This document shows, in pieces, positions 9,838 through 9,993 of a stretch of 64,000 bases of DNA. Made by a program: the position numbers and the translations under genes. This DNA comes from Escherichia coli (lineage in GTDB: Bacteria > Pseudomonadota > Gammaproteobacteria > Enterobacterales > Enterobacteriaceae). Location of the stretch: assembly GCF_016026235.1 (NCBI RefSeq), contig NZ_CP065613.1. One strand, 5' to 3'. The notes under the pieces were generated by a model. It was not told the DNA's origin. It saw nothing but the letters and a program-made list of their open reading frames with translations, and made no database searches. The first letter of the stretch is position 1; every line of letters begins with the position of its first letter.

Positions 9838-9902
9838 ATTTCCTCCGCATGTTGCCCGGGCAATTCTAGAGTAGCGGGATCAGATGGCAATCGCTTATTG
9901 GT

Positions 9903-9924
9903 AAAATGACAATTTTGTCATTTT
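9903..9924. promoter_or_regulatory. CusR box: perfect palindrome AAAATGACAA-TT-TTGTCATTTT in the divergent cusR / cusC promoter region
   Basis: The 22-bp inverted repeat is read directly from the sequence and sits midway between the divergent cusR and cusC starts; it matches the CusR recognition motif as I recall it. Confidence 0.7.
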
Positions 9925-9993
9925 CCTGTCACCGGAAAATCAGAGCCTGGCGAGTAAAGTTGGCGGCATAAAATCACCAGAAATTATGAGCCT

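Follow-up and report, generated by a model that had tools for sequence, protein, structure and literature searches.

The cus intergenic region and its inverted repeat

The stretch of Escherichia coli DNA analysed here, a window of 64 kb, contains the cusRS and cusCFBA genes of the copper/silver efflux system in divergent orientation around an intergenic region of 156 bp (9838-9993), with the ATG of cusR at 9837 on the minus strand and the ATG of cusC at 9994. The features to which we refer throughout the text are the following:

7722..9164, minus strand: cusS, sensor kinase, 480 aa as annotated (NCBIfam and RefSeq)
9154..9837, minus strand: cusR, response regulator, 227 aa (NF007346 equivalog and RefSeq annotation)
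9863..9890, minus strand: putative cusR promoter, -35 TTGCCA (9890-9885), 16-nt spacer, -10 TAGAAT (9868-9863)
9903..9924, no strand assigned: CusR box, AAAATGACAA-TT-TTGTCATTTT, arms 9903-9912 and 9915-9924, spacer 9913-9914
9915..9932, plus strand: Pho-box-like tandem repeat TTGTCAT-TTTC-CTGTCAC (right arm and third half-site), a published PhoB site
9927..9932, plus strand: third half-site TGTCAC, 11 bp in phase with the right-arm TGTCA (9916-9920)
9940..9945, plus strand: conserved block TCAGAG, (A/T)CAGA(G/A) in the cus, sil and pcoE promoters
9955..9960, plus strand: putative cusC -10 hexamer TAAAGT, recognized by conservation only
9994..16126, plus strand: cusCFBA operon (cusC 9994-11376, cusF 11400-11732, cusB 11748-12971, cusA 12983-16126), all genes full length and above curated cut-offs

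CusR, CusS, CusC, CusF, CusB and CusA all give end-to-end NCBIfam matches above the curated cut-offs (for CusR, 505 bits against the NF007346 cut-off of 420, over residues 1-227 of 227), and in a strain that shares the exact intergenic region of the window RefSeq also lists these six genes, none of them flagged as a pseudogene. These matches bear out the statement, made in a preliminary description of this DNA, that the cusRS/cusCFBA module is intact. Some differences in gene models can be recognized: in the list of open reading frames cusS starts further out, with a TTG at 9176, and cusC has 460 codons in the window and in the RefSeq strain EC2641 but 457 in the K-12 MG1655 annotation (595600-596973), a 9-bp length difference located somewhere within the gene. 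Further along the minus strand the nfrB reading frame (5335-7572) is open over 745 codons in the window; the nfrB of EC2641, whose cus spacer is identical, has the same length and carries a RefSeq pseudogene flag for an internal stop.

A pattern search of the entire window finds AAAATGACAATTTTGTCATTTT at a single position, 9903-9924. When this sequence is compared with its own reverse complement there are two mismatches, both at the central bases, and repeat detection resolves it into two perfect arms of 10 nt each separated by the non-symmetric dinucleotide TT. The "perfect 22-bp palindrome" of the preliminary description is therefore accurate with respect to the arms but not to the centre, as the actual structure is 10+2+10. 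Its placement midway between the divergent starts was well judged: the centre of the box, at 9913.5, is 2 bp off the midpoint of the intergenic region, at 9915.5, and lies 76.5 nt from the start of cusR and 80.5 nt from that of cusC.

If a perfect inverted repeat is required to have arms of 10 nt or more and a spacer no longer than 4 nt, the box is the only one in the 64-kb window. Since dinucleotide shuffles yield an expectation of 0.34 repeats of this class per window, the occurrence of one somewhere in such a length of sequence would not be surprising; inside the 156-bp cusR/cusC spacer the expectation, calculated from the shuffle mean, is about 8e-4. The shuffles contained 0 matches to the 22-mer within 3 mismatches. 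As will be seen below, conservation provides a stronger argument for a real site than these chance statistics. A search for further boxes in the window with the relaxed pattern TGACAANNTTGTCA, allowing up to 2 mismatches, gave two extra matches, no more than expected by chance, and on this ground they were rejected as second boxes.

Identity and conservation of the box

The published CusR box of E. coli is AAAATGACAAnnTTGTCATTTT (Yamamoto & Ishihama 2005, as quoted in PMC11195947), and it is quoted also in PMC10920338 and in bioRxiv 10.1101/2020.08.17.251918. Positions 9903-9924 of the window are identical to the published consensus, AAAATGACAA-NN-TTGTCATTTT, at all 20 specified positions, and the 22-mer of K-12 MG1655 is the same as that of the window, K-12 being the strain behind the published CusR binding experiments. 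Thus the sequence, the cusRS/cusCFBA spacer and the flanking genes are all the same as in the published case, and the proposal that CusR acts on the divergent cusRS and cusCFBA operons through this palindrome is supported, because the published site is this very sequence in this very spacer. As quoted in these sources, the published box corresponds to 9903-9924, and the refuting condition named in the preliminary description, a CusR site published for another part of the intergenic region, thus comes out in favour of the proposal.

The binding data in the literature agree with this assignment. ChIP-chip reveals one CusR peak in the whole genome, and it falls in the cusR/cusC spacer; in gSELEX the sole peak of unphosphorylated CusR is found in the same spacer, and so is the top peak of HprR. 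According to PMC10920338 both operons are turned on when phosphorylated CusR binds to the box, which is also stated to be needed for the induction of cusC and cusR by copper and silver (PMC10920338, PMC12589874). The location of the box, the occupancy of the spacer by CusR, HprR and PhoB, and the intactness of the genes rest on these published results together with the sequence identity found here. The palindrome is the published CusR box, so that the observation is correct but ordinary, being already known; nothing that contradicts this identity was found, and the site is almost certainly the single high-affinity operator of the copper/silver two-component system of E. coli.

The cusR/cusC spacer was found in 5333 of 5426 complete E. 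coli genomes, every match having at least 95% identity. The identical 22-bp box is present in at least 5206 of the 5334 E. coli records that carry the region, a number obtained as the sum of exact matches to three 40-mers centred on the box (57 + 1769 + 3380), with about 128 of the 5334 records lying outside these three exact haplotypes. The haplotypes are defined by the bases that flank the box: T9902/C9925, as in the window, in 57 records, C/T, as in K-12, in 1769, and C/C in 3380; the flank type of the window is rare. These same two bases, T9902 for C and C9925 for T, both abutting the box, are the only differences between the spacers of the window and K-12, and a third strain compared has one further difference, at 9965. 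C9925 also falls in the spacer of the published PhoB site.

In an alignment of the window with the chromosomal cus locus of Klebsiella and with two sil plasmids, the mean column identity of the spacers is 67%, while AAAATGACA, TTGTCATT and several downstream blocks are invariant. The core ATGACA-N4-TGTCAT is invariant in the cus loci of Klebsiella and Citrobacter and in plasmid silC and silE; in pcoE the left arm is GTGACA. In one sil-pco plasmid this core occurs, at up to 2 mismatches, 9 times versus 2.1 expected, with boxes preceding silC/silR, silE, pcoA (two boxes) and pcoE. With the spacer as query, a search of a plasmid collection at "distant" sensitivity returned no more than a few loci, from sil and Klebsiella. 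In a genome scan with AAATGACANNNNTGTCATT, which matched at least 120 loci, about 97% of the matches listed are unrelated, and for this reason the 15-base core is not diagnostic when considered alone; among the matches listed, a box is found beside a cus/cop regulator at three loci at least (L041, L105 and L104). In Collinsella genomes and MAGs at least nine loci (L023, L024, L028, L032, L038, L058, L059, L062 and L083) have a fully symmetric repeat, AAATGACA-N4-TGTCATTT, in whose vicinity no cus homologue was detected; an operator unrelated to cus, or a repeat that recurs in the genus, may account for it.

Several related systems can be compared with the cus box. The copper boxes of plasmid sil and pco genes (silR/silC, silE, pcoE, pcoA), whose cognate regulators are SilR and PcoR, have the ATGACA-N4-TGTCAT core of cus and vary in the outer A/T tracts and in the central bases; E. 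coli CusR also controls pcoE through TGACAAnnTTGTCAT (PMC11195947). Downstream of the box, silC, silE and pcoE have the same layout as cusC, that is N5, GTCA(C/T), N7, ACAGA(G/A), N9 and the -10, whereas at pcoA there are two boxes of the TGTAA type, 28 bp from each other, and the arrangement appears to be one helical turn closer to the -10. These two pcoA boxes are at 28641-28656 and 28669-28684 of locus L007; by our own reading the proximal one is 22 nt from a TAGATT hexamer, and its right arm would then sit where cusC-type promoters have the third half-site. At E. coli hiuH-hprR, a locus outside the window, the HprR/CusR box is CATTACAAAATTGTAATG (PMC9302797): it is likewise an inverted repeat of 6-N4-6 geometry, located between a divergent regulator and effector, is bound by both HprR and CusR, and has its own third in-phase half-site, with a -10-like hexamer 22 nt further on, but its half-sites are TTACA/TGTAA rather than the TGACA/TGTCA of cus. 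The CusR palindrome of Pseudomonas paraeruginosa is ATTCATnnATGTAAT (PMC11195947); here too the site lies in a divergent cusR/effector spacer and activates both operons within a very restricted regulon, and it is common to the paralogous regulators CusR, CopR and CzcR, while the half-site sequence differs and the effector operon is of the pcoA2 type instead of an RND pump.

One part of the preliminary description is loosely put, namely that the palindrome is exactly the sort of site that an OmpR-family dimer binds. In the solved OmpR/PhoB-family complexes the DNA-binding domains are arranged head-to-tail on direct repeats, which overlap the -35, and not on inverted repeats; palindromic boxes are particular to the CusR/HprR/PcoR/SilR/CopR subgroup. 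The two arms of the cus box form an inverted repeat, and a direct repeat is present once the third half-site is counted. No CusR-DNA complex was found in the copy of the PDB that we searched, in which the closest DNA-binding domain is that of PcoR (2jzy; the entry name lists no DNA).

Promoters and the third half-site

Box location is a matter of record, while the hexamers assigned to the two promoters, their start sites and the distances of the half-sites from these are what we infer from the sequences compared. On the cusR side a simple sigma-70-type scan calls a putative promoter with a 10/12 match to the consensus, whose -35 is 12 nt downstream of the edge of the box and whose predicted start is at about 9856; Klebsiella cus and plasmid sil keep the TTG of this -35 and the TA.AAT of the -10. 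No promoter is called by the same simple scan on the cusC side. There, the GTAAAGT block (9954-9960) is invariant and aligns with TATAAT in silE and pcoE, which points to TAAAGT as the -10; with a cusC start at about 9967 the centre of the box would be at about -53.5 and the third half-site at about -38. The cusC promoter would thus lack a recognizable -35, as expected for an activator-dependent promoter, and this lack would be the reason why the simple scan misses its -10. The conserved (A/T)CAGA(G/A) block upstream of the hexamer is not conserved in L104 or hiuH. Two other repeats were noticed in this part of the spacer. A 20-nt direct repeat with 80% identity has its two copies 45 nt apart, at 9929-9948 (TCACCGGAAAATCAGAGCCT) and at 9974-9993 (TCACCAGAAATTATGAGCCT), the second of which ends at the cusC start codon. 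An imperfect palindrome, ATTTTCCTGT-C-ACCGGAAAAT (9920-9940, 9/10), shares bases with the right arm as well as with the third half-site; since it is weaker in K-12 and Klebsiella lacks it, it was set aside as probably due to chance.

The third half-site is found only on the cusC side of the box. We have compared effector-side promoters by anchoring their alignment on the box, in a set that comprises cusC (from the window, K-12, Klebsiella and two Citrobacter), silC, silE, pcoE, a copA-like gene (a multicopper oxidase gene in a Proteobacteria MAG) and hiuH from K-12; these promoters are few and in part of shared ancestry (cus/silC; silE/pcoE). The arrangement of box, N5 and third half-site is present in 10/10 effector-side promoters and in 0/7 regulator-side promoters, and the complete pattern, consisting of the box, N5, (T/C/A)GT(C/A)A(C/T/G), exactly 22 nt and a -10-like hexamer, is likewise found in all ten. 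Loci with this layout are the window (9927-9960) and L004, L007, L041, L104, L105 and L128, the coordinates in L007 being 15025-15040, 17274-17289 and 35029-35044. The third half-site of hiuH, TGTAAG, is of the TGTAA variant that also forms the arms of the hiuH palindrome; because the half-site variant matches its own palindrome, this suggests that the third half-site would be used by the cognate regulators, and not by PhoB alone. Tentatively, the effector promoters of CusR-family regulators may share a three-part operator, in which a palindrome, a third half-site and a 22-nt spacing to the -10 occur together and the half-site types co-vary, although we regard this generalization as open to considerable doubt. 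The three-part layout on the effector side is a small, and possibly undescribed, detail.

Together, the right arm and the third half-site make up a tandem repeat that is also of interest with respect to PhoB. A PhoB ChIP-seq study lists "cusR/cusC TGTCATTTTTCTGTCACC" as a site, from which the window differs by one base, C9925, and reports a cusC RNA level of 208 in the wild type versus 50 in delta-phoB. An earlier ChIP-chip/EMSA study puts the PhoB motif on the palindrome, at -77.5 from cusR and -79.5 from cusC (PMC3465305), distances that by our own arithmetic map to 9906-9923 of the window. Positions 9915-9932 have the 7+4+7 tandem layout of a Pho box (two direct 7-bp repeats near CTGTCAT, a 4-bp A/T-rich spacer and a period of 11 bp) and correspond to a published in vivo PhoB site; the repeat overlaps only the right arm of the CusR box. 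Classical Pho boxes, such as those of the pstS and phoA promoters, take the place of the -35 and end about 10 nt upstream of the -10. In the window the distance from the tandem repeat to the putative -10 TAAAGT is 22 nt instead of about 10, which places the repeat about one helical turn further from this hexamer than in the classical cases.

Alternative readings of the site

It could be argued that the repeat is an A/T-rich palindrome that arose by chance, or a hairpin, cruciform or RNA element without a protein partner. The 0.34 repeats expected per 64 kb would allow for the former, and the fold of the box as single-stranded DNA (-7.3 kcal/mol, z = -3.1) for the latter. Against both, the box is kept across genera and in paralogous systems while its flanks diverge, and protein occupancy of the spacer is published. 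Moreover, a 2-nt spacer leaves no hairpin loop unless the inner bases of the arms unpair, and the box is probably not transcribed, since it lies upstream of both putative promoters. A search of Rfam gave no match for the site at E <= 1, no terminator-like site was found at the box, and what hairpin there is would be weak and A/T-rich; on these grounds an RNA or hairpin element was rejected. Conservation and published binding refute this whole line of explanation for practical purposes, and we assign it a negligible likelihood.

A different possibility is that the site belongs primarily to PhoB, as a member of the Pho regulon, or to HprR, with CusR binding being secondary. PhoB gives a signal at the spacer in ChIP-chip, ChIP-seq and EMSA, with an approximately 4-fold PhoB-dependent expression of cusC, and it is in the spacer that the top HprR gSELEX peak is located. 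On the other hand, the box is always accompanied by an adjacent regulator gene of the cusR/silR/copR type, the sole CusR peak in ChIP-chip is in this spacer, the PhoB ChIP-seq signal there is modest (3, as compared with 14 to 20 at phoE and phoA), and the repeat is 22 nt from the putative -10 as compared with the roughly 10 nt of classical Pho boxes. A primary role for either of these regulators is in our opinion very improbable.

Less removed from the accepted picture, and considerably more plausible than either of the above while still rather unlikely, is a refinement in which the operator on the pump side would be tripartite. CusR would bind head-to-tail on the tandem repeat TTGTCATTTTC-CTGTCAC, at about -49/-38, which would bring a protomer up to sigma region 4 where the -35 is missing; the left arm would be the same 11-bp unit in reverse, serving the cusR promoter or a further protomer, so that the "palindrome" would represent two divergent units and not a symmetric dimer site. 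The fixed offset of the third half-site and the fixed 22 nt to a -10-like hexamer, in ten of ten effector and none of seven regulator promoters, are consistent with such an arrangement, as are the TGTAA variant shared by the hiuH third half-site and the arms of its palindrome, the head-to-tail binding of solved family members to direct repeats overlapping the -35, and the fact that PhoB, the model tandem binder, occupies exactly the 9915-9932 repeat in vivo. In the literature, however, only the palindrome has been described and mutated; the comparison covers few promoters, some of them of common descent (cus with silC, silE with pcoE); PhoB is reported also at hiuH/hprR, and could by itself explain the conservation of the third half-site; and by our own reading the layout of pcoA seems to be shifted by one helical turn.

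In the light of what precedes, the operation of the CusR box can be outlined as follows. CusS senses Cu(I)/Ag(I) in the periplasm and phosphorylates CusR, which then binds AAAATGACAA-NN-TTGTCATTTT, halfway along the 156-bp spacer; a single site thus serves to activate two promoters, the putative weak, -35-less cusCFBA promoter to the right and the cusRS promoter to the left, the latter amounting to positive autoregulation. The paralogue HprR recognizes the same box, and PhoB binds the tandem repeat that overlaps it and consists of the right arm plus the third half-site. As CusR, HprR and PhoB all make use of it, the site integrates copper, oxidant and phosphate-starvation signals.

The presence of the box indicates that the copper/silver efflux regulon of this strain is wired as in K-12. 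There is little here beyond confirmation, as the operator is well characterised and its metal-resistance system well studied, and the uses are modest: annotation of the regulatory site, and the advice that copper biosensors built on PcusC should retain both the third half-site and the spacing of 22 nt. Among papers on PcusC biosensors and systems we found no dissection of the promoter. If the three-part layout were true and undescribed, it would help reconcile palindromic copper boxes with head-to-tail binding: the regulators would act in a head-to-tail arrangement at about -49/-38, as elsewhere in the OmpR/PhoB family, two divergent units for two promoters would make up the palindrome, and cross-regulation by PhoB would reuse the tandem repeat.
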